From the IMG/VR virus record IMGVR_UViG_3300037755_000850, positions 32,348-96,347 of that record: a stretch of 64,000 bases of DNA; one strand, given 5' to 3'. Shown in pieces: positions 12,634 through 53,630 of this stretch. A program made the translations under genes and the position numbers. The notes under the pieces are model-generated. The model was not told the origin of the DNA, made no database searches, and saw only the letters and a list, made by a program, of their open reading frames with translations. Origin of the DNA: a virus. The number at the start of each line of letters is the position of its first letter. Position 1 is the stretch's first letter.

Positions 12634-12733
12634 GGAAGGGTAAGCCGAAAGATTGCTGGTTAGCGGCGGCGGTCCTGAAAACCGATGGGCTCCGAAAGGT
12701 GTCGTGGGGGTTCGAATCCCTCCCCTTCCGCCA
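12634..12733 (+). tRNA. tRNA-Ser(TGA)
   Basis: GGAAGGG/CCCTTCC-GCCA; long variable arm; loop CCTGAAA; enlarged D loop. Confidence 0.8.
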
Positions 12734-21025: not shown

Positions 21026-24000
21026 CTATAAAGTGATTCGCGCGTCGTTCTTAGAGAATTCTTTGAACGATATTGGTTTTTTACCGGATTTCTGTGATCT
21101 TTTAAGATAATCCGTGTATAGTTCCGTCATCGGTTTTGAATTCGTATCTGTGAAACCTTCAACAGAAGAACCACCATCTGCTGACCCCAGCGCAAATTGC
21201 GGCATAATCTCTTCCAGACCTTCTTCCCGCAAGGCACGGTTGAGTTCTTGCCGCATGTCGGCTTCCATGAAGGGAACAGAGGCGTATAATCCCGGATTGC
21301 CATCGGCGCGCGGATCGAATGTATCAAAGGCAGAGCGCACCCGTGCGGCATCCCAGAGGAACAGGCTGTCATTGCCGACATCTTCATAATCGTTCTTGTA
21401 GATCAGACTGTCATAACCGTGGGATTCCAGGATATTGACAAGCGCCTGACGGAATGTCTGCTGTTCATCGAAACCAGCGCCAACAAGGGCTTTTTCGGTC
21501 ATGACGGCAACCATCATGTCATCGATGGCGCGGAACACAGGGTAGTTTTTCGGACCAATATCCGGGATCTGACCTGCCATAATTTCCTGGATCGCTCCGC
21601 GCCACATCGGCATCGAGCCCCAGGCGTTGAGATCGGGAACGCGTAAGGGATTGCGGGCCTTGACCAGCAGGGGAAGATTGCGGATATTCTTGCGGTTATC
21701 CCAAAAAGCATTCGACAGGAATCTGGCGAGCTTGCCAATCATGCCCGGTTTTTCCAGCGTGAGCTGATTGTCCACATCGTGGAATGAGAACCCGGCTCGT
21801 TCATTGGCAGCATTAGGTGTATTGATGGCGACATGGAAACCGAAATCGCGGCCCTTGATATTCGGGTTCGGGACCAGAAAATCCGAAGGCGTTGCATGCC
21901 AGGCTGGAAGCGTGAAGCCTTGCAGTTTTGCCCGCTTTAATGGCGCGTCGGCTTTCCACCAGTTTCCGAGATAGGTCCGGATCGCCGATTGCCTGAGCCT
22001 GTCATCAATGGGGCCGCGTCCGAGCGATTCTCCGATGAGGGAAGATCGACCAAAGTCTTCGCGTGTTGGAGTAATTCGATCCGCTGGGCTGAGCCCTTGG
22101 GGTGCTCCAGCGCCCGCTTGAGCAGCGCCCGGCTGGCCAGGATCAGATCGTGCCGGTTGAGTCGCATTGGTGATTTCCCTTAGCCGTTTTACAATCGTGT
22201 CTGGTACATGGTAATCTGGTTCTGGAACAGAAAGCGTTCTGGCTTGGTTCGGCGTGCCGCGCGAGAAATCCCCCCGGAACATGGCATCGAGAATATGTTT
22301 GACCGGTGCGATTTCTTGCGGGGTAAAGACGCCATGTTCATAGAGTTCGACCATGTGAGCGATCTGCTCCTGATCGATGAACTCTTGATAAAATCTTGTA
22401 TTGGCTTTATATAGATCATGATAGGAATCGTAGATTGAGACCTCGTGATCTTTGGAATTTGTATCGGTTATTCCAGTGGCCTCAAGATACGAACCCAAAG
22501 AATGATCCATAACTCGGAGTTTTTCAGCATGGTCAAGAAGACGGAGCCAGATCGCCTCGGGGATACGATTTTTAGTCCTGAGAGCGTGGACAGCCTCATG
22601 CCGTATTACGCCCCGGAGATATTGCGAGCTGCCGCCATCCGGGGTAAGGTTGACAAAGAAAATCCCCGACGTGGCAGGCCGATTTTGCATTTCCGGAAGG
22701 ATCGCGTGGAACGCCGATGATCGTATGTAGTGCGGCGGAAGCCGCAAGGTGAACCGCTTGCCGTCCTCGGTCTTGAAATCAAACAGGATCTTTTCCGGTT
22801 TCGCCTGATTGGGCTCGTCTTGATCAGGGTAAATTCCACTGATATTGGCGACGATATACTCGCTTGGCACCATGTCTTGCGCCGGGCGGATGGCATCGAA
22901 GACCGGCTTGGCTGACTCGATTGGAACCGGAGCCGCCAATCCATTTCTGACGAGCAGAAGCATGTCCTGCGTCAGTCGCGAACGCGCCCCCTTCTTCTCG
23001 CCCCCGATCGCGGCGAGGATATTGGGATCGTCTGGATCAAAGCCACCGGCATTGAAGACGGATTTGATCTGTTCTGGCTTGAAGACGATATAATGGGTGG
23101 CCCCTTGAATACCCTGCATGGTCGGGAATTTTTCATCCACCGTATGATCGATGATGCCATCATAGCCAATCATCTCATAGGCGCGGCGGATCGGCTCCAT
23201 GGTGGACAGTTGGCCAGATTCCGGATCTTCGCCATAGATCAGGAAATCGCTGTTGGAGGCGACATTATAAATCTGCTCAGCCGTTAATCCTTCATTGATG
23301 AAGACATCATCCATCAGATCCGCGATGAAGGCTTCGACATCGATGTTGTTGTAATCCGGCGCAACTTGGCGCAGGGCTTCGAAGAACTCATCAAGCTTGC
23401 CAGAGGGTTCGCCATACTCATAGTCATCAGTTTCCTCATCATAGATCTCGCCAGCCTGGTATGGGAGGAAAGTTGATTCAATTCCCGAATACGGATCGCT
23501 GATCACCACCGGATTTTGAATACTGAGGTAAACCGGCAGGTTCATGCCCTCATGGACATAACCGAGTTGCTCTCTGGCCTTGTTAAAACCATGGGGATCA
23601 TTATATTCGAGCCCGGCATCGCTGTTGAGGCGTTCGGCCAGATTTGTTATTCTTCCCTCGATATCAGGTCCAATGGCGCGGCCATAATTGGCGCTGCTAT
23701 CATCCGGGCTGTCGGTGAAGTAAAAGCCTCTGCCAAGATTTGATTCAACCTGTGTGCGTCTTGGATCAAAGGCTGGAAAATCCGCCAGCGTCGCGTGATA
23801 GAGGATTTTCGGCTCACCCATCTCATCGACTGCGGCGCTTTGTTTGAAGAACGCCTTGAATCTGGGATCATTCTTGATCGGCTGGCCTTCCCGGTCTACC
23901 GGGCGAAGGGCATAGGACAGATCCTGACCGCCACCGCGCGGATCAGGGCTTGCCCCTGAATAGCGACCGGCAAAGATATCGTCAAGAATGTCCTTGACGG

Positions 24001-27000
24001 GGGCGATTTCTTCTTGTGTCCAGGCGTCGTGACTGTATAATTCACTTAAATGAGCGACGGCTTCTTGTTCAAATACCTCTTGAAAATCAGAACGTCCGCT
24101 ATAAAATGATCTGTATTGGTCGCCGACAGAAACAGCATGCGCTCTGAAATCTTGCGTTGGGCGGCCAATTGCATCCAGATAATCAGCAAAGCTGATGTCC
24201 ATAACTTGGAGTTTTCGAGCATGGCCGACAAGAGCAGACCAGACATGATCCGGAAGACGCCCGCTGCGCCGCAGGGCGTGGATGGCCTCATGCCGTATTT
24301 CGCCGACGACACCGCGCTGGAACTCGCCCTGCGTGGTCGTGCGCAGGAAAAAGATGCCGGTCGGGAGCGCCCCATTCGGCGGCTGAAAAAACGCCCGCAG
24401 ACCGAGTAAACCATCACGGTCATATTCCATGACGTGGCTTGAGCCATCTTCGGTGGTGAAATACGCATTGACGCGTTTTCTATTGCCCTTGACAGGCTCG
24501 ATCCGGCTCAGATAGCCGACACTCAATCCGGATGGAACAATGACCCTGTGGGGCTCTATCGCGTTGAGAATGGCGTCCTTGACATTCTCACCAATGGTTA
24601 CAGACCGGCCTGCGGCCAGTAATGTATCAATGCCGCGCAGGATCTGTTCTTGCCCAATCGCCAGTGGCTGTCCTGTTCCTTCCCCTGACAGATCCTTGCG
24701 CATCTGATCGGTAATGGGCCAGTATGGTTGCTCAATGCCGGTTTCAGCGACATGGTAAGGGCTCGGCGCATCATCAGAAATTTTATCGCCTACGGCAACT
24801 CTGGCAATGGATAATTCTCCAGATGGCCTGCGCCAATAGGCTGGAATATTATCTGTGCGACGCGTAAATAGTCTAGCATGGCCGTTTAACACAGATGAGA
24901 TGTCGCCATTGAAATCAGGCGAAGCAACAGTTTCTAACGCTAGATCTATGGACCCACGGATCAAATGTCCATCATAAGCAGGATTGCCCTGATCCATGTA
25001 GTATGTTTGGTTTTTCAGCGCATTCAGCCATTTAACAAAATCATCAACGGTGTAATTCGGGCGAAGAACCTCAGCGTGACGCCGATCAGTGCCGCTGAGC
25101 ATTTTCTTCTCAGGTTTCGATCCCCATTTCTTGACATATTTATTGATAAACTTGGGAACATTCTCACCATAGAATTTCTGTGCCACCTTCTCTGGCGTAT
25201 AGGTGGCTTCACGGATCTGGGCTGGTGTTGTCAGGGCAACGCCGTCAAAACCCTTTTCGACCGCACGTTGAAGTGCAGCCTTGAACCCAAGTTCCCACCA
25301 TGCTGTGCCGGTATAGGGGGCCTCAGGGGCTCCATCAAAGCGGGCGAAGGTGCTGATGTAGGTCGAGGCCGCCTCGCGATTGGCAATAATCCGTGCGTTG
25401 ACCTCGCTCACCTTGGCTTCCGCCTCGCGCGCCTCATTGATAATCGTCTGCACCAGTGGGTGGTCCTGTCTTTGCTCGCTCAACTGATGCAATTCCTCGC
25501 GAACCTTGTACAGTTGCTGCGCTGCCTGCTCCAGGGCTTGGCCTAATTCTGGCGTCACCCCACCATCTTCATGGACTTTCTTGGCCCGCTCCAGCCCTTG
25601 CTTGCCAAAGCCAAAGGCGCGTGCGCGCTGATGCAGATCCGATTGGATCTCATGGATGAACAGAACTTTTTCGCCATTGAGGCCAGTTCTGACATCATAA
25701 CGGATATGGACGACTTCCTGATCCTGATAGTGGTGCGATGAATATTTGCCCTCCAGCATCGGCAGGCGGACCAGCATTTCCTGATAGTGACGGCCACCCT
25801 TGATGCGGTATTGCTTGTAACGGGTCTGATCGGAGAAATAATCACCGCTGCGCCTTACACCATCGCCATATTCGTCTTCGAAGTCTCGCTCTGCCTGCTG
25901 ATGAGCTTGGTCATATTCATAGGCGAAATCCTGCTCATAGATATCTTGCCTTGCAGCCTCTAACTCTTCATCATAAGCATCACGAATGGCTTCAAGTCTG
26001 GCGTTGGCGGCTTCCTGTGCGGCTTGGCGGGTCGGGAATACGTCACCATTCTCAAGCTCTTCATCCTCGCGATCATAAGGATGCTCCAGATTGACTACCC
26101 AGCCGAGATTGCCGTTGCGCCAGTCTTCAAGCGTATCTTCGGTCAGCACTCTTTCGGCTATTGTTTCAAAACGTGGTTCAACGGGTCTTGGTGATGCCAG
26201 GCCAGGAAGCGGAATTTGCCCAAAAACTTCGCCGCTCGCTGCCCACGCGTCCAAAGCGCGTCTGTACAAATCCATCGCATCGCTGTAACGACGCTCGACT
26301 TCTAACAGTTCTTGTTCAGCATCGCTGATTGTGCCGGTGAAATCTTCAAACTGAATTTCGACATCGTAATCAGAAGGATCGTTGCGCTGTTCCCACGTGC
26401 CGATTTGTTCTTGTATGGCTTCACTTTCTAGTTCATTCTGAATTTCCTGAGCACGCTCAGAAATCCACTCATCCCGCTCTTCCTCGTCCATGACGTCAGC
26501 GGGTTCATCATCGTCATCGACCCGTTCGTCTTCCGGAATATCGTCAGGATCGCGTTCCGAGAGCAGGATGCGCTGTTCGATTTCATATTGATGGGCGCGC
26601 AGGAAATCGATAACATCGCTCTTGGCAATGGTCTTTTCGGATTTGGGCTGGTTGGAGCCGGGGCGATCAACCATCATCGAGGCTTGCTCATCAAGCCAGT
26701 CCATTACCCCAAGCCAGCGCACCTCTTCCTGTCTGACGCCGGGGCCGGTCAGAACCTTTTTCCACTGTTCCGGGGTTGCCTTGTCCTGTTTGGCGGTCTC
26801 GACGGCACGGATCGCCGGGGAATAAAACCCACGCAGGGCAAAGACGAGATTGGCCAGATCATCATTGATTTTGTCAAGTTCGGCTTGGGCATCTGAATAG
26901 ACAGCATCAGCCTCGCTCAGACGTTGCTGGGCAAGCTGTAATTGCCGCCTTGTCTGAAAATCGTTCGGATTGGCTTCAAGCTTTTGCTCAAGGTCAATCA

Positions 27001-30000
27001 CCTGCTTTTCAAGATCAACCTTTTCATGGAAGGCTTGACGCGTTCGATCGCCTGCTTCTGAGCGTTTTTCAAACAGTCCCGATTGCACTCTGGCATCATG
27101 CTGTTTATCATAGAGATCGTTCAGTTCTCTTTCAACTTCGGGCAGGCGTTCATTCAAGGCATCAATTTGAGATGCCAGATCATTATAGGCCGCCTCTTCT
27201 TCCGGGGTCAGATCATTGGCTTTGCCACCGATGAGATCCTTGATTTCACCTTGGAGCGTGTCGATCTGGTTGAAAATATCATTTTGCTGGCGTTGCAATA
27301 CCGCCATCCGCCCGGCATTCCCCGTGATTGGAAACGCGGTAATGGCAAAGAGCGGATCAATGCCTTCCTTGGTCTCAGGGGCCATCAGGAAATTGGCGGC
27401 GAGCAAGCCTTGGGACAGGACCTCATCGGAAATGGGTTCTTTGAACCCGGCATCAACCATGGCGCGGCGCAGAGCCTCCATGGTGCGCTGTCCTGATTGA
27501 GTGATGGCCGAGACCGCCGCTAATGCCGCATCCGGTCCCGGCCCTACCCCCTCTGGAGAGACTTGCGCAAAGTTCCCGAGCCAATCTTGCAGGATCTCGC
27601 CGCCGATTCGCAAGGCATCAATTGCAGCCTGTGGATTATTTTCCAGCGCATAGGTTGGGACGCTGGCAAGCGGACTATCCTGATCGGCAACCCGGCCTTC
27701 GGCCCAAGTCCATTCCGGCATCAACCCAGATTTCTGATCACCGAATACGGTGTCTTCAAGGCTGGCGGTGCGGTTGTTTTCGCCGTAAGGGCCAAAATTG
27801 AGCCAGCTATTCTGACCTCTGGTCTCCGAGGTCATTGCCCCTTGTGCCAGACCGGTATAGAGTCGGATATGGGCCTGCCAAGCGTTTTCTTCGCCTTGCG
27901 CGCGGAACCCTGCGCCCTCCATTGAGTGCCCGAACACATCATGCACGGCGCGGAACAGGTCATTGACCAGCACCCGCTTCATGGGACCATCAGGGGCTCC
28001 ATAGGGCCACTGAATACCGCTATCGACCAGCAGCGGTGAGGTGCTGGTGTCAACATCGGTTGCCCCTGAACCAAATCCGGCTTCGGTGGCAAACACCGCC
28101 ATCGACTGATTTTGTCTCAGATCACGAATGGCATTCCAAGGATTGCCCGCATACGGATCATTACCCTCATCATAGAACCAGAATTTGTAGCCATCGGCTT
28201 TAAGGGCTTTATACTGGTCAACGGTCTGTTCGATCATCGCCTGATAGGCCGCCGCAACTTTCGGGTCATTCGGCGCATGCGGCATCTGATCATAGGCGGT
28301 GGCGATCCGAGCGGCTAACTCTGGATTTATTTTCGCGTATTCGGCCTGACGCTTGAGCGGGATACCGTGGTCGCGGGCGTAGCGCTCGGCGACGGCGACA
28401 ACCCTTGGGTCTGGGCCGGTTGCGTCCTCGACTGTCGGCGCACCCTTAAGCGGCGCAAGGCTTCCGCCCTGATCCCGTCCTGCTCGGTCTCTGGCGCGTT
28501 TGGATCGTCTTTCATCTTGACCTCCTGGTCCTAAAGCAAACAGCGGCTGGCCTTCTTCCTTGACCTTCTGGCGTACCTTGTCGGTGATCGGGAAGAAGAT
28601 GAAATCCTGTTTGACAATCCGGGCATCATTGTCCGACAAAGCATTATAGGGATAATCCTCAAATGTCTTGCCTTCGGCTTGCATTCTTTGTAGAATGTCA
28701 GTCTGCTGAGCAATCTTGTGTGGTAACAGTTTCACCCGTTCCGGCTTGACGCTCTTGTCATATTTCTGCAAGATTTTCGCCAGCGCACGGGGATAGATCT
28801 TGTCATAGGTGGCGCGCATGCCCTCGCCGCCGATTTCGAGATCTCCGACATCAAACACATCACTGTGCGGGGTTCCCATCGCCAGATCGGCAGGCTCCCG
28901 CCCAATCACCTCAGAAAGAGAATGTCCTACAAGTTCCGACGTGCTGGAATGAACAATTGTTCCCTCAGAGTTGACACCGATCGTTGTCGTTGGCCTGCCT
29001 GTTTTTTTCAGCCTTATAAGTCTGTCGTCGGAAGAAAACTGCACTTCGACTTCCATCTCATCGGCAACAGCGATAAGACCGGGATAGCGCTTGTTCTGCA
29101 CATCCCCCGGCGTAATCGTCACCCCATCAACACCGGCATCAACGGCGTCTTTTACAAATTTACGTAATGTTGTCGCCAGCCATTGATCTGTGGTGCGGAC
29201 AAGGGGATGGGCTGGGGTGGCGGCGTTGGCTGTGGCAAGTTCAGCCACAATCCGCATTCTCGTATTGAAGGCAGCGGCTATTTTGTCGGCATGCTTGTCC
29301 GCAAATTCGCCAAATTCTTCGTTGGCTGTTTCCTGCCCAGCTCTGAACAGCCAATCCCCTGTTGCCTTCGGGCTAAGCCCGAATTCCCCTGCCTCAATGC
29401 GGTCAATATAGTTCGGCGATGGTCCTGGGAAGAAATTCAACAGTCGGTTATTATCATCGACATCCCCGTTGGGGTCCATGATATGGTCGCGATATCGCCT
29501 GTCTCCCTCTATGGAAAGCTCACGAAGCTGTTTGTCGGTTTCCTCAAGTTGCTTTTTCAGCTCAGCAATCTTGGCCTCATCCCGTGCCCCGCCTTCACGG
29601 ATCTTCTGACCCCAGTCAGACTGGAATTCATCACCATTCAGAACCGTGCGGCCATCAACTGTCTGAAGCTGCTGGGTGCGGTAATGGGAGACGACATTGG
29701 GTTCCTCGAAATGGCCTTGGCGGAACGCAGGCTGCATGGGTTCAAGGCGATTGAACCTGTCGCCCTTTTCGAAGACGCGGCGCGCATAATCGATCCAGTA
29801 GGAATCTGGCTTCCCTGCGCTGTCTTCGGCACCATCAAGCAAGACCTTGCCATCGTAGGAAATCGTGGCACTTCCTTGCGTGGTAGACTGGCGACGGCGT
29901 TCGATCTTGACCTTGGCGGGATCAAATTGTGGGGCCGATTCCGGAATCGGAAGATGCACCACATTTTCCCGATAAGTCGGGTTGCCTGGATCGAGAGACC

Positions 30001-32644
30001 ATTTTTCCCATTTGGCAGGACCGGTGACATCTTCGGGGTGATCAACCTGGTTTTCCAGCCAATCCTGGATCGCCAGCATCGCATGACGTTCACGCTGGCG
30101 ATTCATCGGCGCATTGACAGGGATATATTCCCCGTCAGGCCCGCGAACCGTCACATTGCCCGCATCATCATCGACATTGACGACAAAGATATTGCCGCTC
30201 TCGCGATCTTCAACTTCAACATCATAGCTGCCATCTTCATTGGGAACCCTGGCGTATTCTCGCAAGGACGGAAACGCAGCTTCCTTGCCCCCATACCGTG
30301 ACTGTTGCAACCTGACTCTATTCTGGTCCAGATACCCCACCAGATCATCACGGGCGATCCGGCGCGGCAGGTTGGTGTTCTGCATGGCTTGGCGGAATTC
30401 ATCTTCGCCAGTTGCCAGCAACGGCTGAATGCGCGCCAATTCGGCTTCGATCTCGGCGCGGCGCGCTGGCGTGATCTCTGGATCTTTCTGCCCCATCTCA
30501 CTGCGCAGCGCATTGGCCTCGGTGCGCAGATCGACAAGCTGGCGGCGCTGCTGGGCAAGAGGCTCGCCAAACAGGAATTTATCCAGATCCGTGGCGCGGA
30601 TTTCCGCTTCCTTGGTGCCGCCCTTTTCGATCTGTGCCAGCATCTGTTCCGGGGTGCCGGTCGCTTGCGGCAGCGTGCGGGCTGATTCCAGCGCTTGACT
30701 GTAAAAGCCGAGATCATCAATATCGCGGGACGGAACGCCGGGGCCGATCGCGGGCAGAATATCTTCTTCCGACAGCGGCGCCGATGGCAAGGTCAAGGGC
30801 TCGCGATCCAGTGTCTGGGTCTGGCCTGGTGTCTGTTCTTGGAATGGCGAGGTCTGCACCCGCCCTGCCGTGCCAGGCGCTGCAAATTGATCACGGACCT
30901 CCACGTCTGGTGTATCTTGCGGTTCCTGTGGCGTTTGCGGGGAAGGCATCTGCGCCATCGCCGGGCGCATGGTCTGGATCAACTCATTGGCGACCGCTGA
31001 CAGTTTCCCGGTGTCGCGAACCTTTTGCAAGGCCGCCTGCACGACATTCTGGGTCGGGCCAGGCTCATCAACCGCGCTCAGGAACTGATCGGCCTGCGCA
31101 GCAAGAGGCGGGCTGGCGTTCAGCAGGCGGGACATTTCCGCCTTCAGCGCATTGCGCTCCGGTGCATTCAGATCAGGCAGCGCCAGCGGTGCGCTGGGAT
31201 CTGGCTCACCGCCAATTGGCAGGTCTTCCAATGGCGTCAAGGGACCGCGATCTTCGACCCCATCATTCAGCCAGTCCCAATTGTCAGGCGGTGGCAATTG
31301 CGGGTAAGGACCAACCTGTCCCCCAGTTTGACCACCACCTTGATCAGGGCTAAATCGGCCCGGCATCAGGAAGTTCATCAAGCCACCAAGCGTGCCACCT
31401 ACTGCCGCACTCTCGCCAACCCCTGCCATTGCCGCACGCTCGGGATCGGTGGTATGCTGACTGATGACATTTTGCGCCAGCTGTGCGCCCGATTCCTGCA
31501 CCGCCTCTTCTGCGGCCCCTTCGGCCCCTTGAATGAGCCTCTGGCCCAACCGGGTCTGCGCATTAGGCACCGCGCGGGTCAGGGTTCTGGCAATCGGCGC
31601 GGCCTCGGTCAGACCAACTGCGCTATAGCCAAGGGTCTTGAGCAATCTATCATAATCATCAATCGCTGGCTGATCACCACTTGCCGCCGCCTCGGCGCGG
31701 GCTTGCTGCAATTCGCGGGTGGCCTCTTCAAAGCCTTGCGTCCCGCTGGCTGATCCACCAAAGGCAGAGACAATCCCGATCTGCGCTGGCTGGCTCAGCT
31801 TTGCCAGTCGCGCCAGAATGCCGACACCGTAAAAGCTGACCAAGGAGCCAGCGCCTGTCGCCAATTGCTGGGCGAACTCATCCTGGCGCGCGGGATCGCC
31901 GGGGAACTGCCGCGCTACCCAGTCTTTTGCCCCACGGCTCCAGTTCAGCAGATATTCGTCATCAACCGGGCCGTCTTGAACATAACCCTTGATTATCCCG
32001 GCCATTTGCGGGATACTGATCATGGTTTCAGCGACGGAGCGCGGGAAGTTCTCTACAGCAGACCGCAACCCACTTTTGATCGGCAGAGCCAACTCGCCCC
32101 GCTCCATCGCGGCCAGCTCTTTGAGACGTGTTTGACCCTGTTTGATCGAGGCAGTCGCTTGCCGGGTTTCATCAGCCCCCAGCAGATCGTCGTCCGGACT
32201 CATCCCCATGGCGCGGCGATTGCGCAAGCGCTCTTGCGCCCCCGAGATCATCCCTTGTGCGGCCTGCTTTTCCGCCTTCAGCCAGTTTTGCTGATCCTGC
32301 GGCGAATAGACCCCGAAACTTTCGCCCAGCACCCCAAGATTGGGCTCATCGCTGACCGGCCCCCGAGAACGCGGAAACAAAATAGACGGATCTGGCTGTT
32401 CAACCGCCGTGCGCGATTGCCGGAATGTTGCGAACGGATCATAATCGGTCGCCTGCGGCAAGACCGGATCAACTTTTGGCGCTTGGAGATTGACACCGCG
32501 CTTGGCCATTTCCGCTTGTGGGAAATCCGAGACAGCCGCGCCGATCTCGCCGAAGCGGAAATCATTCGGGTTGATCTGCTTGCGCCTGCGCTCTTTATCC
32601 CAGATATCTGGAAACACAGAAAACGGATCATAATCGGTGGACAT
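21026..32644 (-). CDS. Giant polyvalent ejection protein (3872 aa)
   Basis: Two ART-like modules (YHAT/WHAT...GFYF...GYDG), two IRHEA.HALR zincin motifs, an HDVFGH module, two GFYS...E.QSD modules. Confidence 0.75.
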   Translation of the reverse strand: MSTDYDPFSVFPDIWDKERRRKQINPNDFRFGEIGAAVSDFPQAEMAKRGVNLQAPKVDPVLPQATDYDPFATFRQSRTAVEQPDPSILFPRSRGPVSDEPNLGVLGESFGVYSPQDQQNWLKAEKQAAQGMISGAQERLRNRRAMGMSPDDDLLGADETRQATASIKQGQTRLKELAAMERGELALPIKSGLRSAVENFPRSVAETMISIPQMAGIIKGYVQDGPVDDEYLLNWSRGAKDWVARQFPGDPARQDEFAQQLATGAGSLVSFYGVGILARLAKLSQPAQIGIVSAFGGSASGTQGFEEATRELQQARAEAAASGDQPAIDDYDRLLKTLGYSAVGLTEAAPIARTLTRAVPNAQTRLGQRLIQGAEGAAEEAVQESGAQLAQNVISQHTTDPERAAMAGVGESAAVGGTLGGLMNFLMPGRFSPDQGGGQTGGQVGPYPQLPPPDNWDWLNDGVEDRGPLTPLEDLPIGGEPDPSAPLALPDLNAPERNALKAEMSRLLNASPPLAAQADQFLSAVDEPGPTQNVVQAALQKVRDTGKLSAVANELIQTMRPAMAQMPSPQTPQEPQDTPDVEVRDQFAAPGTAGRVQTSPFQEQTPGQTQTLDREPLTLPSAPLSEEDILPAIGPGVPSRDIDDLGFYSQALESARTLPQATGTPEQMLAQIEKGGTKEAEIRATDLDKFLFGEPLAQQRRQLVDLRTEANALRSEMGQKDPEITPARRAEIEAELARIQPLLATGEDEFRQAMQNTNLPRRIARDDLVGYLDQNRVRLQQSRYGGKEAAFPSLREYARVPNEDGSYDVEVEDRESGNIFVVNVDDDAGNVTVRGPDGEYIPVNAPMNRQRERHAMLAIQDWLENQVDHPEDVTGPAKWEKWSLDPGNPTYRENVVHLPIPESAPQFDPAKVKIERRRQSTTQGSATISYDGKVLLDGAEDSAGKPDSYWIDYARRVFEKGDRFNRLEPMQPAFRQGHFEEPNVVSHYRTQQLQTVDGRTVLNGDEFQSDWGQKIREGGARDEAKIAELKKQLEETDKQLRELSIEGDRRYRDHIMDPNGDVDDNNRLLNFFPGPSPNYIDRIEAGEFGLSPKATGDWLFRAGQETANEEFGEFADKHADKIAAAFNTRMRIVAELATANAATPAHPLVRTTDQWLATTLRKFVKDAVDAGVDGVTITPGDVQNKRYPGLIAVADEMEVEVQFSSDDRLIRLKKTGRPTTTIGVNSEGTIVHSSTSELVGHSLSEVIGREPADLAMGTPHSDVFDVGDLEIGGEGMRATYDKIYPRALAKILQKYDKSVKPERVKLLPHKIAQQTDILQRMQAEGKTFEDYPYNALSDNDARIVKQDFIFFPITDKVRQKVKEEGQPLFALGPGGQDERRSKRARDRAGRDQGGSLAPLKGAPTVEDATGPDPRVVAVAERYARDHGIPLKRQAEYAKINPELAARIATAYDQMPHAPNDPKVAAAYQAMIEQTVDQYKALKADGYKFWFYDEGNDPYAGNPWNAIRDLRQNQSMAVFATEAGFGSGATDVDTSTSPLLVDSGIQWPYGAPDGPMKRVLVNDLFRAVHDVFGHSMEGAGFRAQGEENAWQAHIRLYTGLAQGAMTSETRGQNSWLNFGPYGENNRTASLEDTVFGDQKSGLMPEWTWAEGRVADQDSPLASVPTYALENNPQAAIDALRIGGEILQDWLGNFAQVSPEGVGPGPDAALAAVSAITQSGQRTMEALRRAMVDAGFKEPISDEVLSQGLLAANFLMAPETKEGIDPLFAITAFPITGNAGRMAVLQRQQNDIFNQIDTLQGEIKDLIGGKANDLTPEEEAAYNDLASQIDALNERLPEVERELNDLYDKQHDARVQSGLFEKRSEAGDRTRQAFHEKVDLEKQVIDLEQKLEANPNDFQTRRQLQLAQQRLSEADAVYSDAQAELDKINDDLANLVFALRGFYSPAIRAVETAKQDKATPEQWKKVLTGPGVRQEEVRWLGVMDWLDEQASMMVDRPGSNQPKSEKTIAKSDVIDFLRAHQYEIEQRILLSERDPDDIPEDERVDDDDEPADVMDEEERDEWISERAQEIQNELESEAIQEQIGTWEQRNDPSDYDVEIQFEDFTGTISDAEQELLEVERRYSDAMDLYRRALDAWAASGEVFGQIPLPGLASPRPVEPRFETIAERVLTEDTLEDWRNGNLGWVVNLEHPYDREDEELENGDVFPTRQAAQEAANARLEAIRDAYDEELEAARQDIYEQDFAYEYDQAHQQAERDFEDEYGDGVRRSGDYFSDQTRYKQYRIKGGRHYQEMLVRLPMLEGKYSSHHYQDQEVVHIRYDVRTGLNGEKVLFIHEIQSDLHQRARAFGFGKQGLERAKKVHEDGGVTPELGQALEQAAQQLYKVREELHQLSEQRQDHPLVQTIINEAREAEAKVSEVNARIIANREAASTYISTFARFDGAPEAPYTGTAWWELGFKAALQRAVEKGFDGVALTTPAQIREATYTPEKVAQKFYGENVPKFINKYVKKWGSKPEKKMLSGTDRRHAEVLRPNYTVDDFVKWLNALKNQTYYMDQGNPAYDGHLIRGSIDLALETVASPDFNGDISSVLNGHARLFTRRTDNIPAYWRRPSGELSIARVAVGDKISDDAPSPYHVAETGIEQPYWPITDQMRKDLSGEGTGQPLAIGQEQILRGIDTLLAAGRSVTIGENVKDAILNAIEPHRVIVPSGLSVGYLSRIEPVKGNRKRVNAYFTTEDGSSHVMEYDRDGLLGLRAFFQPPNGALPTGIFFLRTTTQGEFQRGVVGEIRHEAIHALRRSGRLPDHVWSALVGHARKLQVMDISFADYLDAIGRPTQDFRAHAVSVGDQYRSFYSGRSDFQEVFEQEAVAHLSELYSHDAWTQEEIAPVKDILDDIFAGRYSGASPDPRGGGQDLSYALRPVDREGQPIKNDPRFKAFFKQSAAVDEMGEPKILYHATLADFPAFDPRRTQVESNLGRGFYFTDSPDDSSANYGRAIGPDIEGRITNLAERLNSDAGLEYNDPHGFNKAREQLGYVHEGMNLPVYLSIQNPVVISDPYSGIESTFLPYQAGEIYDEETDDYEYGEPSGKLDEFFEALRQVAPDYNNIDVEAFIADLMDDVFINEGLTAEQIYNVASNSDFLIYGEDPESGQLSTMEPIRRAYEMIGYDGIIDHTVDEKFPTMQGIQGATHYIVFKPEQIKSVFNAGGFDPDDPNILAAIGGEKKGARSRLTQDMLLLVRNGLAAPVPIESAKPVFDAIRPAQDMVPSEYIVANISGIYPDQDEPNQAKPEKILFDFKTEDGKRFTLRLPPHYIRSSAFHAILPEMQNRPATSGIFFVNLTPDGGSSQYLRGVIRHEAVHALRTKNRIPEAIWLRLLDHAEKLRVMDHSLGSYLEATGITDTNSKDHEVSIYDSYHDLYKANTRFYQEFIDQEQIAHMVELYEHGVFTPQEIAPVKHILDAMFRGDFSRGTPNQARTLSVPEPDYHVPDTIVKRLREITNATQPARSDPGQPGAAQAGAGAPQGLSPADRITPTREDFGRSSLIGESLGRGPIDDRLRQSAIRTYLGNWWKADAPLKRAKLQGFTLPAWHATPSDFLVPNPNIKGRDFGFHVAINTPNAANERAGFSFHDVDNQLTLEKPGMIGKLARFLSNAFWDNRKNIRNLPLLVKARNPLRVPDLNAWGSMPMWRGAIQEIMAGQIPDIGPKNYPVFRAIDDMMVAVMTEKALVGAGFDEQQTFRQALVNILESHGYDSLIYKNDYEDVGNDSLFLWDAARVRSAFDTFDPRADGNPGLYASVPFMEADMRQELNRALREEGLEEIMPQFALGSADGGSSVEGFTDTNSKPMTELYTDYLKRSQKSGKKPISFKEFSKNDARITL

Positions 32645-43058: not shown

Positions 43059-45245
43059 TTAAGACGCCGCTGTCGCGTAGGTTGAAATAACAACAGTCCC
43101 GAAATCTGCACTGTCAAAGACTGTCTTCTTCATACCCCAGATACACCAGGCGGAGACTTCAAGTTTACGCTTGTGATCAAGCACTTTTTTGTTCACCGAG
43201 GGCCGCTAGTCCCCGACCGCCCCTTTCGGGACTGCTCATAGTTTCCTATGAGATCTGACCATATCATGCCCCACGTCTTTCTCGTTTGGGGCCTGTGCGC
43301 TTCCAGCCGCTTGGCTGTACTCCCTTTCGGGATGGTCGATGCACCTTCCTTTCGAGTTTGATAATAACTCAAAGGCTTGGCTCAGGATTACCCACCGCTT
43401 ACGCGGCTAGGGCTTCCCCTGAGTTCACACAGTTGTCATTTGCCGGTTTCCCGACAACGGAGCTGCCAATCAACTCTTCATTCCAGCGGTATTTCATGGG
43501 GCCGTAATTTGCCTGACCGTAACCAACGACGGCAGACTGGGCTCCAAGTAATACTGCCCGTCTAACAGTAGTAATAGCTGCGCTAGTAGAACTGTTTACA
43601 CCCTGAGTAACATCCTGAGACTGCCGGATGATGACTCCGTTGTATTCTCCAAGAGCGCCGGTGTAGATTGGGTTCTTGGTTACTTGGCCACCCATCATGG
43701 CTGCTTTTTGAATATCAAGCCATTGACCAGTAGAACTGTTAGTTCTAAGGCTCGTAACCTGGTATGGGTGCAGGTAGATTACGTATTTAGGCTGACCACC
43801 GATACGGATAGGCCGGACCATATTGCTGCCAACCTTGGCAAGCTCTACGGCCTGATCGATCAGATCGAGGGTGAACACGTCAGCCGATGTGATATCCTGG
43901 TCGTTGGAACCAGACCCGGCGACGATCTTGCGACCGGATGTCGGGGCGGTTACGGAATTGAGACCGGTGTACTTGGTGTTGGTCTGGACCGTGTAGCCGC
44001 ATACCTGATTGAAAAAGCTTCGTGTGTTCGCATCGAGATCGCAACTCTCGACACCGCCCTTTCGGGCTGCTGCATGTTTCCATGCAGTCCAGACTATATC
44101 ATCATTCCCTTTCGGGACGCCGGGCGCTTCGGGCCGCTTGGCCCTACGAGATTGCTCTCTAGTCGTTGCTCTTTCCCTTGCGTCGGCGATCCTTGACAAG
44201 GACTCCGCCGTTTCTTCGTTTGCCGAAATTGCAGTTAAAACAGAGAACTTCGAGGTGTTCTGGCATCCCCTCACGGAGGATTCGAACATAAAGTCCATAC
44301 CCGATTTCACGATGTCGATTTTCCCGCCGTAATTCGCCACCATCATTATTGATGTGGTCAATGGTGAGGAAAAGCGACTCTGTCTCACCACACGCTTGGC
44401 ATTCGCATCCGAGCTTTTCAAAGACCGCTTCGCGCAATTGCGCATAGCGGGAAATGCTAAGTTCATTTGCTCTTTGCCGCCGTTCTGGCGTCCAGACCGC
44501 AAGAGGGTCTTTGGCGTATCGATCTCTAGCCCTGCTGAGGCGGCGCTCCTTATTGGCAACATGGTGCGCTTCGACACGTACGCTATTGCACGTTCTGCAA
44601 GCATGTCGCCGTTTTGTATGTGCCGGATCATAGAACTGAAATTCCTCGATCGCCTTAGTCTGACTGCATTTTTTGCAAACTCTGGTTGTCATATTAATCC
44701 TTGTGGTGGGTTGATCCATTCACAAAGAATTACTCTAACCAGAACTGAAGCTGCAAGGGCTTAGATCAGGATTGCCGCCAGCCGGACTGGGACGGGATTC
44801 CCTGAGTTCACCCGGTTTTACATCCGCTAAGCTATTGAATACTCACGGATTTTCTATCCGCCCACCACTCACCCAGACCATCACGGGCCTGCTGGCGAAG
44901 GTTGAACGGAACGCGTTGCTGGTCGATGGTATTCTGAGACTTGACGCCGACATTATGGCCCAGCTCGTTGATCAGAACAGCATCGCTGTAGATCGACAGG
45001 CTTTCACCATTGCCTTCGGCAGTTTCCGTTTCAGTGATACCGTCCCCGGTCAGGCGGGCGCGCAGACCGAAGGTCACGCTGTCCCCGGACCCTTTCGAGG
45101 TCTCGGACTTCATCTGGATGATGGAATTGTCATCCGATCCGATAAGTGGAGCAATGTCGAGGGCCTCTCTCTCGGCCACAATCAGCATTTTACTCCACAG
45201 CTTCACGGCGAATGCATCATTCACCGGAAACGATGTATAAGCCAT
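43059..45245 (-). CDS. Major capsid protein (N4-gp56/DUF4043-like), spliced; exons 45245-44845, 44020-43473, 43183-43059; 357 aa
   Basis: AVKLWS, GDSVTFGLR, EGNGESL, LHPYQ...W.DIQKAA...NPIYTGALGEYNGV, RAVLLGAQ, GMKKTVF...DFGTV; joined exons total 1074 nt in frame. Confidence 0.88.
43184..43472 (-). mobile_element. Group I intron 2 in MCP (289 nt, no ORF)
   Basis: P1 GAGU|UG/CAGCUC with U-G at the splice site; P10 GGCA/UGCU; core AAUCCUGAGCCAA and GAUAUGGUC; terminal G. Confidence 0.88.
44021..44844 (-). mobile_element. Group I intron 1 in MCP (824 nt, encodes HNH)
   Basis: P1 AUCCGU|/GCGGAU with U-G; P10 AGCUU/AAGCU; core GGCAAUCCUGAUCUAAGC and GAUAUAGUC; terminal G. Confidence 0.88.
44159..44692 (-). 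CDS. Intron-encoded HNH homing endonuclease
   Basis: CKKC...CRTC N-terminus; CQAC...LTIDHINNDG...LCFNCN; RBS AAGGA. Confidence 0.85.
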   Translation of the reverse strand: MTTRVCKKCSQTKAIEEFQFYDPAHTKRRHACRTCNSVRVEAHHVANKERRLSRARDRYAKDPLAVWTPERRQRANELSISRYAQLREAVFEKLGCECQACGETESLFLTIDHINNDGGELRRENRHREIGYGLYVRILREGMPEHLEVLCFNCNFGKRRNGGVLVKDRRRKGKSND

Positions 45246-49414: not shown

Positions 49415-49709
49415 TGACGTTCGTGAGCCGCCCGATCCGGAACGCTGGGTCTGGGCCAAGACATCCGAGGAAGCCTTGACCATCATCCGTAATGGCGGCG
49501 TCGCGTTCATCTCCTTCGATCATGATCTCGATGGTAGCGACACCACCTATCCGGTGGCTAACTATATCGAGCGCCAAGCGCAAGCTGGTGTTCAGCCCCC
49601 AGGCTGGGCGATCCATTCGCAGAACCCGGTCGGACGCGTCAATTTGCGCGCCGCGCTGGAAAGCGCTGAACGCTTCTGGCGGGATTATATAAAGAGTAGA
49701 GCGGCATGA
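49398..49709 (+). CDS. Cyclic-phosphate-processing receiver-like domain protein
   Basis: LWIDDVR.P, ISFDHDL and IHSQNPVG; coupled to rtcB. Confidence 0.8.
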
Positions 49710-52093
49710 CCAGATCTGATCCAGACAAGGAACGCGCTTACGAAATGGCCATTGCTGCCGGGATCGACCCCAACGCCAAGATCGCGCGTGAGGGGCTGAG
49801 ACCCATGCCAGCCTGGTGCACATTCCGACAGGCCGCGCGAGACGAGCGCATGGCGCGTGAGGCCAAAGCGTTTGGCGCAACCATCGCTCCGCAAGATCCA
49901 AAATACGCCGACAGCCCGCTGACCGTGCTCGGCAACCACGAATATGCCACTCTTGAGCAGATGAAGAACTGCATGGCTGTAGGTAATGTGGTCGGTGCGA
50001 CCTTGTGCGCTGATGGCCATCTTGGCTATGCCCAGCCGGTGGGCGGCGTGATCGCTTATGAAGGCCAGATCTCGATTTCTGGGGTTGGCTTTGATATTGG
50101 GTGCTTTACTGGTGATACCCGCATTTTTACCATGGATGGTCAAACGCCAACGTTGGCGGAAATTCAAGGGCAGGATGTTTACATCCTAGCATGCGAACCG
50201 GATGGAAAGCCAATTCCAGCGAAGGGAACTTGCTACAAAACACGCCGGTCGGCTGGCTTAGTTCGCGTCACCTTGGATAACGGAGAAACAATACGCTGCA
50301 CTCCTGACCACAAGTTCATGTTGCGCGATGGCTCATATCAGCGTGCCGATTGCCTTGTGCCAAACCAGCCCCTAATGCCGCTTTACATGACGGCTGATCG
50401 CGATGGTTACGTCCTCGTGCGCAACAACAACACGAAGAGACTGATGCGTCTTCACTGGATGGTCTATCGTGCTGGCATGACTGATCCGGCACCAGATCTC
50501 GATGGCGATGAGATGATCCTTCACCATAGGAACTTTATTCGATCGGACAACACTCCGTCAAACCTGCAACCTATGGGGAAAATTGCGCACGATGCCATGC
50601 ACGCCGCAATGCGCGATAGAGCGCACTTCAATACGCCAAAGTTCCATGCCAACAGGATAAGGGCAATCAAAAAATTCTGGGAAGGTGCTCGCCATGACGA
50701 CGAATTCATGGAGAAGCGACGCAGGACAGCATCGACCAACATCGTCTCCTATATGAACGAGCGCCCCGATCATTTCCGCGAGAGCATCAGTGAAAATGGG
50801 TTGCGAGGTGCGCAGCACATTACCAAGTTCAATTCTGATCCGGAGACGATCAAGCGCACATCAGAGCGGTCCAGAGTTCCACATATCTGCCCAATCTGCG
50901 GCTTTGTTGCCCGTGGGCCATCTGGATTGTCCATCCACGCACGCTTCAAACACCCAGAAGCCGCCGCAATAGCAAGAAGAGGAAAGAATTGGAAGCCTGG
51001 GTATCCATCACTTATCGAACGTCTAGCGGAAGCCGCAAACAACCATAAGGTCGTGTCTATCGAACCCATCACAGATGTTGAGGATGTCTACTGCCTCACC
51101 GTTCCAGGTCTTAATAATTTCGGGCTTGCAAGCGGTGTGTTCGTTCACAATTGTGGCAACCTGGCGGTGCGGCTTGATGTGCCGTTCAAAGCCATCGAAG
51201 ACAAGGTGCTGCCACTTGCTCGCGATATCGCCAAGACCATCTCGTTCGGCGTGGGCCGCACCAATGAAGAGCGCGCCGAGCATGACCTGTTTGACGATGA
51301 TGCAGCCTGGAAAGCCTCCGGCATGGAGGATTTTCGCGGCAAGGCGCAAAAACAGCTCGGCACTGTCGGTTCTGGGAATCACTATGTCGATCTCATGAAA
51401 GATGAAGACGGGTTCGTCTGGATCGGGGTGCATTTCGGCTCGCGCGGGCTTGGCCATACCGCTGCCACCCGCTATCTTAAACTTGCCGGTGGCAAGGATG
51501 GCATGCATGTGCCGCCAGCGGTGATTGATGATAATACCGAACTGGGTGAGCGCTATATCGCCGCCATGGAACTGGCTGGGCGCTATGCCTATGCGGGCCG
51601 GGAATGGGTGGTTGAGCGGGTCCGACAGATGATCGGCGGTAAGGTCACGGACAGCGTTCACAACCACCACAATTTCGCCTGGCGCGAGCGACATGGCGAC
51701 AAAAACCTCTGGGTAGTCCGCAAGGGCGCAACGCCAGCCTTCCCCGGCCAGCGCGGCTTTGTCGGCGGCTCGATGGGCGATGATGCCGTCATTCTCGAAG
51801 GCATCGAAAGCGAGGACAGCAAGGGCGCGCTCTATTCCACCGTTCATGGTGCGGGCCGGGTCTTTGGCCGCAAGGAAGCCAAGCGCCGATTTGGCCGGGC
51901 TGAAATGGATGACTGGATCAAGGCGCGCGGCGTTACCTTGATCGGCGGTGATCTCGATGAGAGTCCGATGGCCTATCGCCGCCTTGATGAAGTGTTGAGC
52001 TATCACCACAAGACCGCCCGTGTTCTGCACCGGCTGTCACCCTTTATCGTTGTCATGGCAGGGAGCGGAGAGAAAGATCCGTATAAAGATTGA
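49706..52093 (+). CDS. rtcB: RtcB RNA ligase with intein
   Basis: ADGHLGY, GFDIG|CG, QLGTVGSGNHY, HFGSRGLG, HNHHN, RKGATPA, HGAGR, DESPMAY. Confidence 0.93.
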   Translation: MTRSDPDKERAYEMAIAAGIDPNAKIAREGLRPMPAWCTFRQAARDERMAREAKAFGATIAPQDPKYADSPLTVLGNHEYATLEQMKNCMAVGNVVGATLCADGHLGYAQPVGGVIAYEGQISISGVGFDIGCFTGDTRIFTMDGQTPTLAEIQGQDVYILACEPDGKPIPAKGTCYKTRRSAGLVRVTLDNGETIRCTPDHKFMLRDGSYQRADCLVPNQPLMPLYMTADRDGYVLVRNNNTKRLMRLHWMVYRAGMTDPAPDLDGDEMILHHRNFIRSDNTPSNLQPMGKIAHDAMHAAMRDRAHFNTPKFHANRIRAIKKFWEGARHDDEFMEKRRRTASTNIVSYMNERPDHFRESISENGLRGAQHITKFNSDPETIKRTSERSRVPHICPICGFVARGPSGLSIHARFKHPEAAAIARRGKNWKPGYPSLIERLAEAANNHKVVSIEPITDVEDVYCLTVPGLNNFGLASGVFVHNCGNLAVRLDVPFKAIEDKVLPLARDIAKTISFGVGRTNEERAEHDLFDDDAAWKASGMEDFRGKAQKQLGTVGSGNHYVDLMKDEDGFVWIGVHFGSRGLGHTAATRYLKLAGGKDGMHVPPAVIDDNTELGERYIAAMELAGRYAYAGREWVVERVRQMIGGKVTDSVHNHHNFAWRERHGDKNLWVVRKGATPAFPGQRGFVGGSMGDDAVILEGIESEDSKGALYSTVHGAGRVFGRKEAKRRFGRAEMDDWIKARGVTLIGGDLDESPMAYRRLDEVLSYHHKTARVLHRLSPFIVVMAGSGEKDPYKD
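50102..51151 (+). mobile_element. Intein in RtcB (350 aa) with HNH endonuclease and C2H2 finger
   Basis: Starts CFTGDT; CTPDHKF; HHRNF..SDN..SNL; CPIC...H..KH; ends VFVHN before Cys. Confidence 0.9.
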
Positions 52094-52451: not shown

Positions 52452-52526
52452 TGGTCCTGCTTCGCATAATCGAAATGCGCTTTCCCGGTCCACAACCGAG
52501 CGTCTTAACCACTAGACCAAAGCAGG
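52452..52526 (-). tRNA. tRNA-His(GTG), no G-1, A73
   Basis: CCUGCUU/AAGCAGG-ACCA; loop UUGUGGA. Confidence 0.85.
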
Positions 52527-52528
52527 TT

Positions 52529-52605
52529 TGGTCAGGGTGGCCGGACTCGAACCGGCGATCTTCTCATTCCAAGTGAGACGGGATGACCAACTTCCCCACA
52601 CCCTG
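52529..52605 (-). tRNA. tRNA-Pro(TGG)
   Basis: CAGGGUG/CACCCUG-ACCA; loop CUUGGAA. Confidence 0.9.
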
Positions 52606-52727: not shown

Positions 52728-52819
52728 GGGCTCCCTTCCCTTCAATGGGCTGTAAACCCGTTGGCTTTGAAAACAGAAGGGTGGATGCCGGAGATGTTCG
52801 ATTCATCGGGGGCTCACCA
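52728..52819 (+). tRNA. Atypical D-armless tRNA-Tyr(GTA)-like RNA
   Basis: GGGCUCC/GGGGCUC-ACCA; loop CUGUAAA; 9-nt pyrimidine linker in place of the D arm; long variable region. Confidence 0.6.
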
Positions 52820-52835
52820 AATTGAGGTTGTAAAG

Positions 52836-53036
52836 ATGACTGACCAAGAGCTGTTCAAAAACCTCGCCACCTTCAGCATCGTGAAGCAAAAACAGATGCG
52901 GGATAAGGCTTTTGCCGCCCACGAAGCTGAGCGCAAAGACACATCTGATCAGCGGTGGCTCGATCATATAAAGAAGACCTTGATCGAGATCGTAGAAGAC
53001 GAAGTGCGCAAAAGAGAAGCAACGCAGGCACACTGA
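52836..53036 (+). CDS. Small hypothetical protein
   Basis: RBS GAGG; MTDQELFK. Confidence 0.5.
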   Translation: MTDQELFKNLATFSIVKQKQMRDKAFAAHEAERKDTSDQRWLDHIKKTLIEIVEDEVRKREATQAH

Positions 53037-53040
53037 CTAT

Positions 53041-53115
53041 TCGGGGATCGTCTAACTGGTAGGACATCAGATTTTGATTCTGACAATAGGGGTTCGAAGC
53101 CCTTTCCCCGATCCA
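53041..53115 (+). tRNA. tRNA-Gln(TTG)
   Basis: TCAGA-TTTTGAT-TCTGA; CCA. Confidence 0.88.
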
Positions 53116-53132
53116 GACAAAGGAGACCAACA

Positions 53133-53405
53133 ATGCCCCATTCAGACTTCTGGGCAGAAGACCCAACCAGAGTAGACCGGTTCATCGATATGTGGAACAA
53201 GGGGCTGACCGTTGACGAGATCGCCCGTGAGCTTGGCACCAGCCGTGGATCGATATCCGGCAAACGCCAGCGGCTTGATCTGCCGCGAAGATCAAACATC
53301 CTTGTGCAAAACTGGCGCGCAACGCCAGAGAAAATCGCCGGTGCCAAAAATCTGCGCCGTCTTGGATTGTCCCTTAATGCCATCGCTGAACGGTGTATGG
53401 GGTGA
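53133..53405 (+). CDS. GcrA-like HTH regulator (frameshifted extension to 53461)
   Basis: W....V.....MWNKGLTVDEIARELGTSRGSISGKRQRLDL; RBS AAGGAG. Confidence 0.75.
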   Translation: MPHSDFWAEDPTRVDRFIDMWNKGLTVDEIARELGTSRGSISGKRQRLDLPRRSNILVQNWRATPEKIAGAKNLRRLGLSLNAIAERCMG

Positions 53406-53461
53406 CAGCGGGAGCAATCCGGAAATGGGTGGCTAAAGACGTTGTGGAAGAGACTTCATAA

Positions 53462-53544
53462 GCGGGCGTGGCGGAAATGGTAGACGCATCGGGTTTAAGC
53501 CTCGATTCTTCGGAGTGAGAGTTCAAGTCTCTCCGCCCGCACCA
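53462..53544 (+). tRNA. tRNA-Leu(TAA)
   Basis: GGCGGAAATGGTAGACGC; loop TTTAAGC; variable arm; ACCA. Confidence 0.9.
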
Positions 53545-53553
53545 TCATTAAAT

Positions 53554-53630
53554 GCCCCTGTAGGCCAATTGGTAGAGTCACCTGATTTAGGATCAGGGTG
53601 TTGGGAGTTCAAGTCTCTCCAGGGGCACCA
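53554..53630 (+). tRNA. tRNA-Leu(TAG) with short variable loop
   Basis: CCTGA-TTTAGGA-TCAGG; ACCA. Confidence 0.82.

Follow-up and report, generated by a model that had tools for sequence, protein, structure and literature searches.

A phage genome carries a gene for a tRNA-like RNA in which the D hairpin is missing and the strand left in its place pairs with a partner inside an enlarged variable loop. It is one of a conserved class of tRNA-Tyr genes, found almost solely in viruses, that represents a new structural variant of a known molecule. The window analyzed here covers the final 64 kb of an IMG/VR phage record that is 96,347 bp long and carries direct terminal repeats, and the gene spans 92 bases of it (52728-52819, plus strand). 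On the strength of sequence comparison alone, we regard it as very probable that the rewired fold and its linker:variable-loop helix, hereafter helix X, are real. Our favored functional reading, held with clearly less assurance, is that the gene encodes a phage-specific, non-cloverleaf tRNA-Tyr(GUA) that is charged and decodes; RNA production, charging, and decoding are all inferred.

Counting 52728 as nt 1, the gene comprises the following parts.

52728-52735 (+), nt 1-8: 5' strand of the acceptor stem, 8 nt, GGGCUCCC, pairing with 52808-52815
52736-52737 (+), nt 9-10: spacer following the acceptor stem, UU here; every member has NU, most of them UU
52738-52743 (+), nt 11-16: 5' strand of helix X, CCCUUC, pairing with 52776-52781; supported by covariation and a blind census
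52744-52749 (+), nt 17-22: 5' strand of the anticodon stem, 6 nt, AAUGGG; supported by covariation
52750-52756 (+), nt 23-29: anticodon loop CUGUAAA, with the GUA anticodon at 52752-52754
52757-52762 (+), nt 30-35: 3' strand of the anticodon stem, CCCGUU; supported by covariation
nt 36-62 (+): variable region of 27 nt, starting with GGC and ending with GCC; read from the sequence
52763-52765 (+): 5' strand of the variable-arm stem, GGC, pairing with 52787-52789
52766-52775 (+): A-rich portion of the variable loop; A/U-rich and about 5-14 nt long across the family
52776-52781 (+), nt 49-54: 3' strand of helix X, GAAGGG, within the variable loop; supported by covariation and the census
52782-52784 (+): UGG, proposed counterpart of D-loop G18/G19; elbow role inferred
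52787-52789 (+): 3' strand of the variable-arm stem, GCC, closing the pseudoknot together with helix X
nt 63-65 (+): GGA; read from the sequence
52793-52807 (+): T arm, with a 4-bp stem GAUG/CAUC (nt 66-69/77-80) and loop UUCGAUU (nt 70-76)
52808-52815 (+), nt 81-88: 3' strand of the acceptor stem; supported by covariation
52816-52819 (+): discriminator A73 (52816, nt 89) and encoded CCA (52817-52819, nt 90-92)

Several hallmarks of canonical tRNAs are retained, namely a 12-bp acceptor/T branch (8 + 4), a 7-nt anticodon loop with U33, and a UUCRANY T loop. The D hairpin is absent, only 8 nt separating the 8-bp acceptor stem, which includes two G-U pairs, from the anticodon stem. The 5' strand of helix X sits in the place of the D stem and directly abuts the anticodon stem. 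We read the acceptor/T branch as 8/4 rather than 7/5 because C52735 (nt 8) pairs with G52808 (nt 81), whereas A52792 (nt 65) cannot. A previous sequence-only reading had called CCCUUC (52738-52743) complementary to GAAGGG (52776-52781), and its coordinates are exact; the two segments are exact Watson-Crick complements with a duplex energy of about -7.9 kcal/mol. That reading was equally right about the GGC/GCC closure of the enlarged variable arm, which brackets 27 nt, and about the CUGUAAA (GUA) loop and the 3' ACCA. Its statement that the surrounding elements are intact holds for the T loop, with the qualification that the T stem has only 4 bp and the acceptor stem 8 bp. Because of these stem lengths, the 9-nt CUUCCCUUC that it took to replace the D arm must be redrawn as a spacer of UU + CCCUUC.

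Standard annotation does not recover the gene. ARAGORN called 12 tRNAs in the window, 52728-52819 not among them, and called 0 of 67 family members, while Rfam returned no match to the gene at the gathering score, RF00005 included. At relaxed Rfam thresholds the sole alignment was to tRNA-Sec (RF01852; 21.7 bits versus a cut-off of 47), using the long acceptor stem and the 4-bp T stem. The nested minimum-free-energy fold of the single sequence was no better than that of shuffles (z = -0.9), an uninformative result because the algorithm cannot form a pseudoknot.

Homologues were gathered from phage and metagenome contigs by pattern scans and a covariance model. This yielded 67 distinct sequences with G+C contents of 41 to 66%, mostly 82-92 nt long ahead of the CCA position, with two insert-bearing genes outside that range. 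The first IMG/VR pattern scan returned one twin of the same architecture in a 226-kb phage, in which the eighth acceptor pair has changed from C-G to G-C and one hexamer pair from C-G to U-A. Broader IMG/VR patterns gave about 20 viral members, and further variants comprised an anticodon-free viral pattern, a metagenome scan, and a viral scan with UGG and T-loop position 56 left free. The covariance model (R1), built from 20 sequences, separates members from chance matches: the window gene, itself one of the 20 seeds, scores 91.8 bits, and at least 30 non-seed members score 64-97 bits. All features of the R1 family are present in the window gene, including the hexamer helix followed by YGG, the GGC/GCC closure, and the 8/4 branch.

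Not every candidate survived inspection. L086 and L098 were pattern false positives, about 46 of the 80 metagenome loci returned were chance pattern matches, and neither of two doubtful loci, L183 (GCA loop, 38.5 bits) and L343:8127-8236, was counted. A blastn search of the region and three family members against GenBank phages found no family member, and the RtcB-related phage loci L002-L081 contained no homologue of the region. Weak matches in Felix O1-like phages (Moogle, phiSUSP1) fell on another tRNA-Tyr that keeps its D loop and scores 16.7 bits with R1. As an observation in its own right, Citrobacter phage Moogle (L345, 1473-1560) and, at the same place, phiSUSP1 (L346) have an 88-nt tRNA-Tyr whose D stem pairs poorly; it goes uncalled by ARAGORN, and its GenBank labels vary among tRNA-Tyr, tRNA-Asn, tRNA-OTHER, pseudo, and none.

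Beyond viral sequences the family is almost absent. Scanning 185,579 prokaryote species (one genome each) with the anticodon-free pattern gave 41 matches, of which 40 were false positives, about the number expected by chance. The one true member lies on a 3.6-kb MAG contig that is almost the same in sequence as copies from metagenome phages. As far as an exact pattern can show, then, the family is essentially viral. A cultured phage, crAss001 (L347, MH675552), whose GenBank record annotates 23 tRNAs, none for Tyr, carries a remoter version of this design. R1 gives a 30-bit match at 4141-4238 (+), between tRNA-Lys and tRNA-Phe, where the record annotates nothing; the element there has a GUA anticodon and A73, a branch divided 7/5, a linker:variable helix of 4 bp (CAUC/GAUG), and CUCC/GGAG as its closing stem.

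Around the window gene we annotated the following neighbors.

49706-52093 (+): RtcB RNA ligase with an intein (Pfam RtcB 1.8e-60; Intein_splicing 1.3e-16)
52452-52605 (-): canonical tRNA-His and tRNA-Pro, upstream and divergent, called by ARAGORN
52836-53630 (+): downstream block of a 66-aa ORF, tRNA-Gln, a GcrA-like ORF, and two tRNA-Leu

The RtcB gene lies 640 nt upstream of the rewired gene, beyond tRNA-Pro and tRNA-His; its relatives in other phages are about 445 aa long and lack the intein. As a family-wide neighbor RtcB was rejected, since the six other genomes that were checked contain no homologue. An alpha-proteobacterial host is probable. The tRNA-His(GUG) at 52452-52526 (-) has no encoded G-1 and carries A73, a combination typical of a group of alpha-proteobacteria (Mukai et al., PMC5389517), and the closest cultured portal proteins, at about 37% identity, come from Rhizobium and Paracoccus phages.

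Several other features of these genomes deserve mention. The window tRNA-Leu(UAG) at 53554-53630 is one of a set of leucine tRNAs of 74-77 nt that lack the usual long variable arm, five more being present in the 226-kb phage (L082 13-1481). At window positions 12634-12733 (+), a 100-nt tRNA-like gene missed by ARAGORN and by the Rfam gathering score has a GGAAGGG/CCCUUCC acceptor stem, G73, encoded CCA, a D loop of 16 nt, and a long variable arm, with CCUGAAA as its anticodon loop (anticodon UGA, C33); it scores 36.3 bits with Rfam tRNA-Sec against a cut-off of 47. The major head protein ORF (43399-44631, phrog_334) shares its 3' end with a group I intron (43235-43482, minus strand; Rfam 73.6 bits), which may split the capsid gene. 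Finally, 21026-32644 (-) is a single ORF of 3,872 aa.

The identity of the gene points to tyrosine. Bacterial tyrosyl-tRNA synthetase (TyrRS) recognizes A73, G1-C72, the GUA anticodon, and a long variable arm, and the window gene carries all four. Across the family, the discriminator is A in 30/30 GUA members of a strict census and in 63 of 67 members overall, 1:72 is G-C in 44/50, and CCA is encoded in 31 of 67 (46%, against 1 in 64 by chance). The anticodon loop retains U33, G34-U35-A36, and A37-A38, and the acceptor/T branch is always 12 bp.

Gene content agrees with a decoding role in seven carrier genomes. Across its whole genome, this phage encodes 12 canonical tRNAs, none of them Tyr; six further complete or near-complete carrier genomes likewise have 4-25 canonical tRNAs each with Tyr missing, and in these six the rewired gene lies on the same strand as an adjoining tRNA gene, 1-6 nt away. 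Anticodon-free scans returned members with GUA and a few with UCU. Carrier genome G011 holds a second copy of the scaffold with a UCU anticodon and discriminator G and is without a canonical Arg(UCU), and there are two more UCU members; the loci recorded for UCU (Arg) on the same scaffold, with discriminator G or A, are L104:1848-1936 (-), L127:1501-1589 (-), and L219:6043-6131 (+). Canonical tRNA-Tyr is also present in three partial phage records, so the rewired gene is not always the sole Tyr tRNA, and it may do something that a normal tRNA-Tyr cannot. Three further loci were recorded separately. L343:7694-7779 (-) has the same or a similar scaffold with UCU, a 7-bp acceptor stem, and a CGUUAC/GUAACG helix. 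At L182:272-374 (+) and L331:724-826 (-), a second gene on the same scaffold immediately adjoins the Tyr gene; its 6-bp linker:variable helix is perfect, and a sequence of 16-19 nt takes the place of the 7-nt anticodon loop.

Under our preferred reading, RNase P and 3' trimming would free the RNA from a polycistronic transcript, and the RNA would adopt an L shape, as inferred by reasoning rather than from a model. The host TyrRS would then charge it through A73, G1-C72, GUA, and the long variable arm, and the charged RNA would read UAU/UAC on the host ribosome, filling the Tyr slot of the phage tRNA set. Among the sequencing runs searched, none was an RNA data set containing the gene, which says nothing about expression.

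The alternative that best withstands these data is a tRNA look-alike working outside translation, either as a decoy or sponge for a host defense nuclease that attacks tRNA-Tyr or as a regulator, with the Tyr marks kept for recognition. Its coexistence with canonical tRNA-Tyr in three phage fragments suggests a separate job, the RtcB ligase 640 nt upstream would suit such a role, and a precedent exists in Retron-Eco7 PtuAB, a defense that phage tRNA-Tyr neutralizes (PMC12673091). We nevertheless consider a purely nontranslational role unlikely. An encoded CCA in 46% of members, an exact 12-bp branch, and a MiaA/Tgt-type anticodon loop fit a charged decoder; seven tRNA-rich phage genomes have this as their sole Tyr gene; the same scaffold carries an Arg anticodon; and RtcB is missing from six other genomes checked. 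Decoy and decoder roles are not mutually exclusive.

The evidence for the fold itself is covariation. In a MAFFT alignment of 19 sequences, 97.4% of cells are paired in the acceptor stem, 97.4% in helix X, 96.5% in the anticodon stem, and 98.7% in the T stem. Three of the six helix X pairs vary on both sides in this set (one pair, for example, is CG 7, UA 6, AU 3, UG 2, GC 1), and the inner pairs show 5-6 pair types. With 50 distinct model-aligned sequences, helix X remains 96.3% paired, and five of six pairs vary on both sides. None of 500 shuffles attained the observed pairing values, and sliding the 3' partner by 1-3 columns lowered whole-structure pairing to 44-55%. All eight acceptor pairs covary, including the eighth (8:65; n = 50, GC37 UG5 AU3 CG3 UA1). 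Weakest is the outermost anticodon-stem pair, mostly G-U, which resembles position 26:44 of canonical tRNAs.

Because the 50-sequence alignment leans toward the model and the scan patterns forced the two outer C-G pairs of helix X, we performed a blind census in which every pattern match was read at set positions, and its acceptor, anticodon, and T pairing alone decided whether it counted as tRNA-like. All four unconstrained X pairs formed in 29/32 distinct tRNA-like matches and three of four in the remaining 3/32; chance matches mostly had 0-3 of the four. Across the 67 members there are 39 distinct 5' hexamers, pairing 6/6 in 57 and 5/6 in 10, and many independent compensatory events must therefore have occurred. 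The acceptor, anticodon, and T helices and helix X are thus demonstrated by covariation, as far as alignments can establish a helix. By itself, a single 6-mer and its complement would be weak evidence; the same pairing held in register in 67 homologues is more than chance. The sequence-only reading had proposed that the RNA adopts an alternative tRNA fold and is not the product of random decay, naming covariation of the two segments in homologues as the check; with 96-97% pairing and changes on both sides, that proposal is borne out.

The second stem of the core is less secure. The GGC/GCC stem crosses helix X, which makes the core a pseudoknot, and its three pairs are invariant across the family. 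Since GGC/GCC never varies, support for this stem rests on a partly covarying fourth variable-arm pair, standard in 21/32 members (G-U 8, A-U 7, C-G 5, U-A 1); in some members the stem reaches 5 bp. The data are compatible with the GGC/GCC stem but give it only weak proof. In addition, several scan patterns required the GGUGG, GUUCGA, and GG(C) motifs, so their conservation is only partly independent, and the TT of the spacer was also required by some patterns.

These same data bear on the remaining alternatives. The earlier wording, that the linker "can pair" with the variable loop, is upheld as to the pairing, which judging from the alignments looks constitutive; an optional alternative conformer finds no support. 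It is accordingly improbable in our estimation that the RNA switches between two folds, with the linker:variable-loop pairing present in only one of them. A switch could account for the different pairing in the nested minimum-free-energy fold and for a long, A-rich variable loop, yet covariation shows that the pairing is under selection in all 67 members, the register never shifts in the slid controls, and no rival helix is conserved. We give next to no credence to a decaying tRNA-Tyr pseudogene with a deleted D arm and chance complementarity. Rejection by standard finders and the known occurrence of tRNA fragments in phage genomes would fit decay, but the 67 distinct homologues come from unrelated phages with G+C of 41 to 66%, compensatory change maintains all helices, lengths stay at 82-92 nt save in two insert-bearing genes, and divergence among homologues excludes one recent mobile sequence. 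Scarcely any weight attaches, finally, to the region being part of a coding gene (the ORF 52761-53036, which opens with a TTG at 52761 and overlaps the gene's 3' half) or the leader of the downstream 66-aa ORF, as that ORF has its own ATG at 52836 with GAGG ahead of it, the conserved unit elsewhere is an 82-92-nt RNA with differing neighbors, and variation tracks base pairs, not codons.

Taking the rewired fold as given, its geometry can be compared with that of a cloverleaf tRNA, by reasoning and without a computed model. The 5' strand of helix X would lead straight into the anticodon stem, like the 3' strand of a D stem, and the 3' strand would climb to the elbow, like the D-stem 5' strand. 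With its strands so placed, the stem would be retained in space while its connections are rewired, and because helix X runs directly into the anticodon stem, it could stack there as the D stem does. The YGG that follows the 3' strand of helix X probably stands in for D-loop G18/G19 in contacting the T loop. It occurs together with T-loop C56 in 62 members, and when UGG and position 56 were both left free in the scan, NGG was present in 19/20 new members. Two exceptions appear compensated: L328 has CGU with the T loop UUAAACU (A56), which would give U19-A56, and the insert-bearing relative L182:272-374 has UGA with UUUGAAU (U56), which would give A19-U56. The role of YGG is inferred, and the compensated exceptions number only two.

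We compared the rewired gene with known tRNAs of unusual shape. Class II tRNA-Tyr(GUA), such as E. coli tyrT/tyrU, shares the CUGUAAA loop, A73, G1-C72, a long variable arm, a UUCGAUU-type T loop, UUCC after the acceptor stem, and placement in tRNA arrays. Unlike those tRNAs, the rewired gene has no D hairpin, keeps the partner strand of its "D stem" in the variable loop, divides its branch 8/4 instead of 7/5, has a 27-nt pseudoknotted variable region, and goes undetected by ARAGORN and Rfam. Similar in branch geometry are the (8/4) tRNAs and allo-tRNAs (PMC5389517), which also have a 12-bp branch split 8 + 4 and a long variable arm; 8/4 tRNA-Ser and tRNA-His, all with D arms, have been reported in alpha-proteobacterial phages (Mukai et al., NAR 2017, PMC5389517), and the phage studied here looks alpha-proteobacterial too. 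Those molecules differ in having a D arm with a long stem and tetraloop and Ser, His, Cys, or Sec rather than Tyr identities, and no linker:variable-loop helix has been described for them (PMC5389517). The likeness to tRNA-Sec (RF01852) lies in the long acceptor stem, 6-bp anticodon stem, long variable arm, and 4-bp T stem; the rewired gene departs from it in having GUA rather than UCA and no D arm, and in its score of 21.7 bits versus 47.

Reviews list D-armless tRNAs for mitochondria only (PMC4013460, PMC7609411). Functional examples are known from animal mitochondria alone, where the partner proteins are adapted to them. Such tRNAs, including metazoan mt-tRNA-Ser(AGY), lack a D hairpin and yet work (PMC4013460, PMC7609411), but they are short, have no long variable arm, rely on adapted factors, and carry a D-replacement loop that is not paired to a distant strand. 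The rewired gene, by contrast, rebuilds the stem from the variable loop and comes from a phage record, with bacterial host machinery. A full-text literature search found no phage or bacterial tRNA described with a D stem formed by the variable loop.

As to why the core would be rewired, the most attractive proposal is escape from host nucleases that cut tRNA-Tyr. Retron-Eco7 PtuAB cleaves the variable loop of E. coli tRNA-Tyr; a phage tRNA-Tyr whose variable loop is longer withstands cleavage and neutralizes the defense (PMC12673091). The SP15/T5-type phage tRNA-Tyr resembles the present family in being phage encoded with an altered variable loop, a plausible selective reason for the change; it differs in keeping a normal cloverleaf with a loop 5 nt longer, and no test links the rewired family to defense. 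Counter-defense as the reason for rewiring therefore remains a tentative idea that we rate as possible rather than probable.

For tRNA and phage biologists the rewired class is of high interest. If these genes are indeed used with unmodified bacterial machinery, they would widen the structural limits accepted by RNase P, the CCA-adding enzyme, TyrRS, EF-Tu, and the ribosome, and would offer a natural, orthogonal-looking scaffold for synthetic biology. Phage tRNA counts would be systematically too low, ARAGORN calling 0/67 members and the crAss001 copy being unannotated. A broader hypothesis, which we advance as speculative and would not yet bet on, holds that bacterial translation routinely accepts a second, non-cloverleaf route to the L shape and that the tRNAs with a D stem rebuilt by phages from the variable loop, for Tyr and for Arg, may still be processed, charged, and read by the host's enzymes and ribosomes, serving both as decoders and as counter-defense devices that hide the D arm and variable loop recognized by tRNA-cutting immune nucleases of the host. 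The reshaping of tRNAs by phages to escape tRNA-targeting immunity would, if the rewired class is what it appears to be, become a testable idea.
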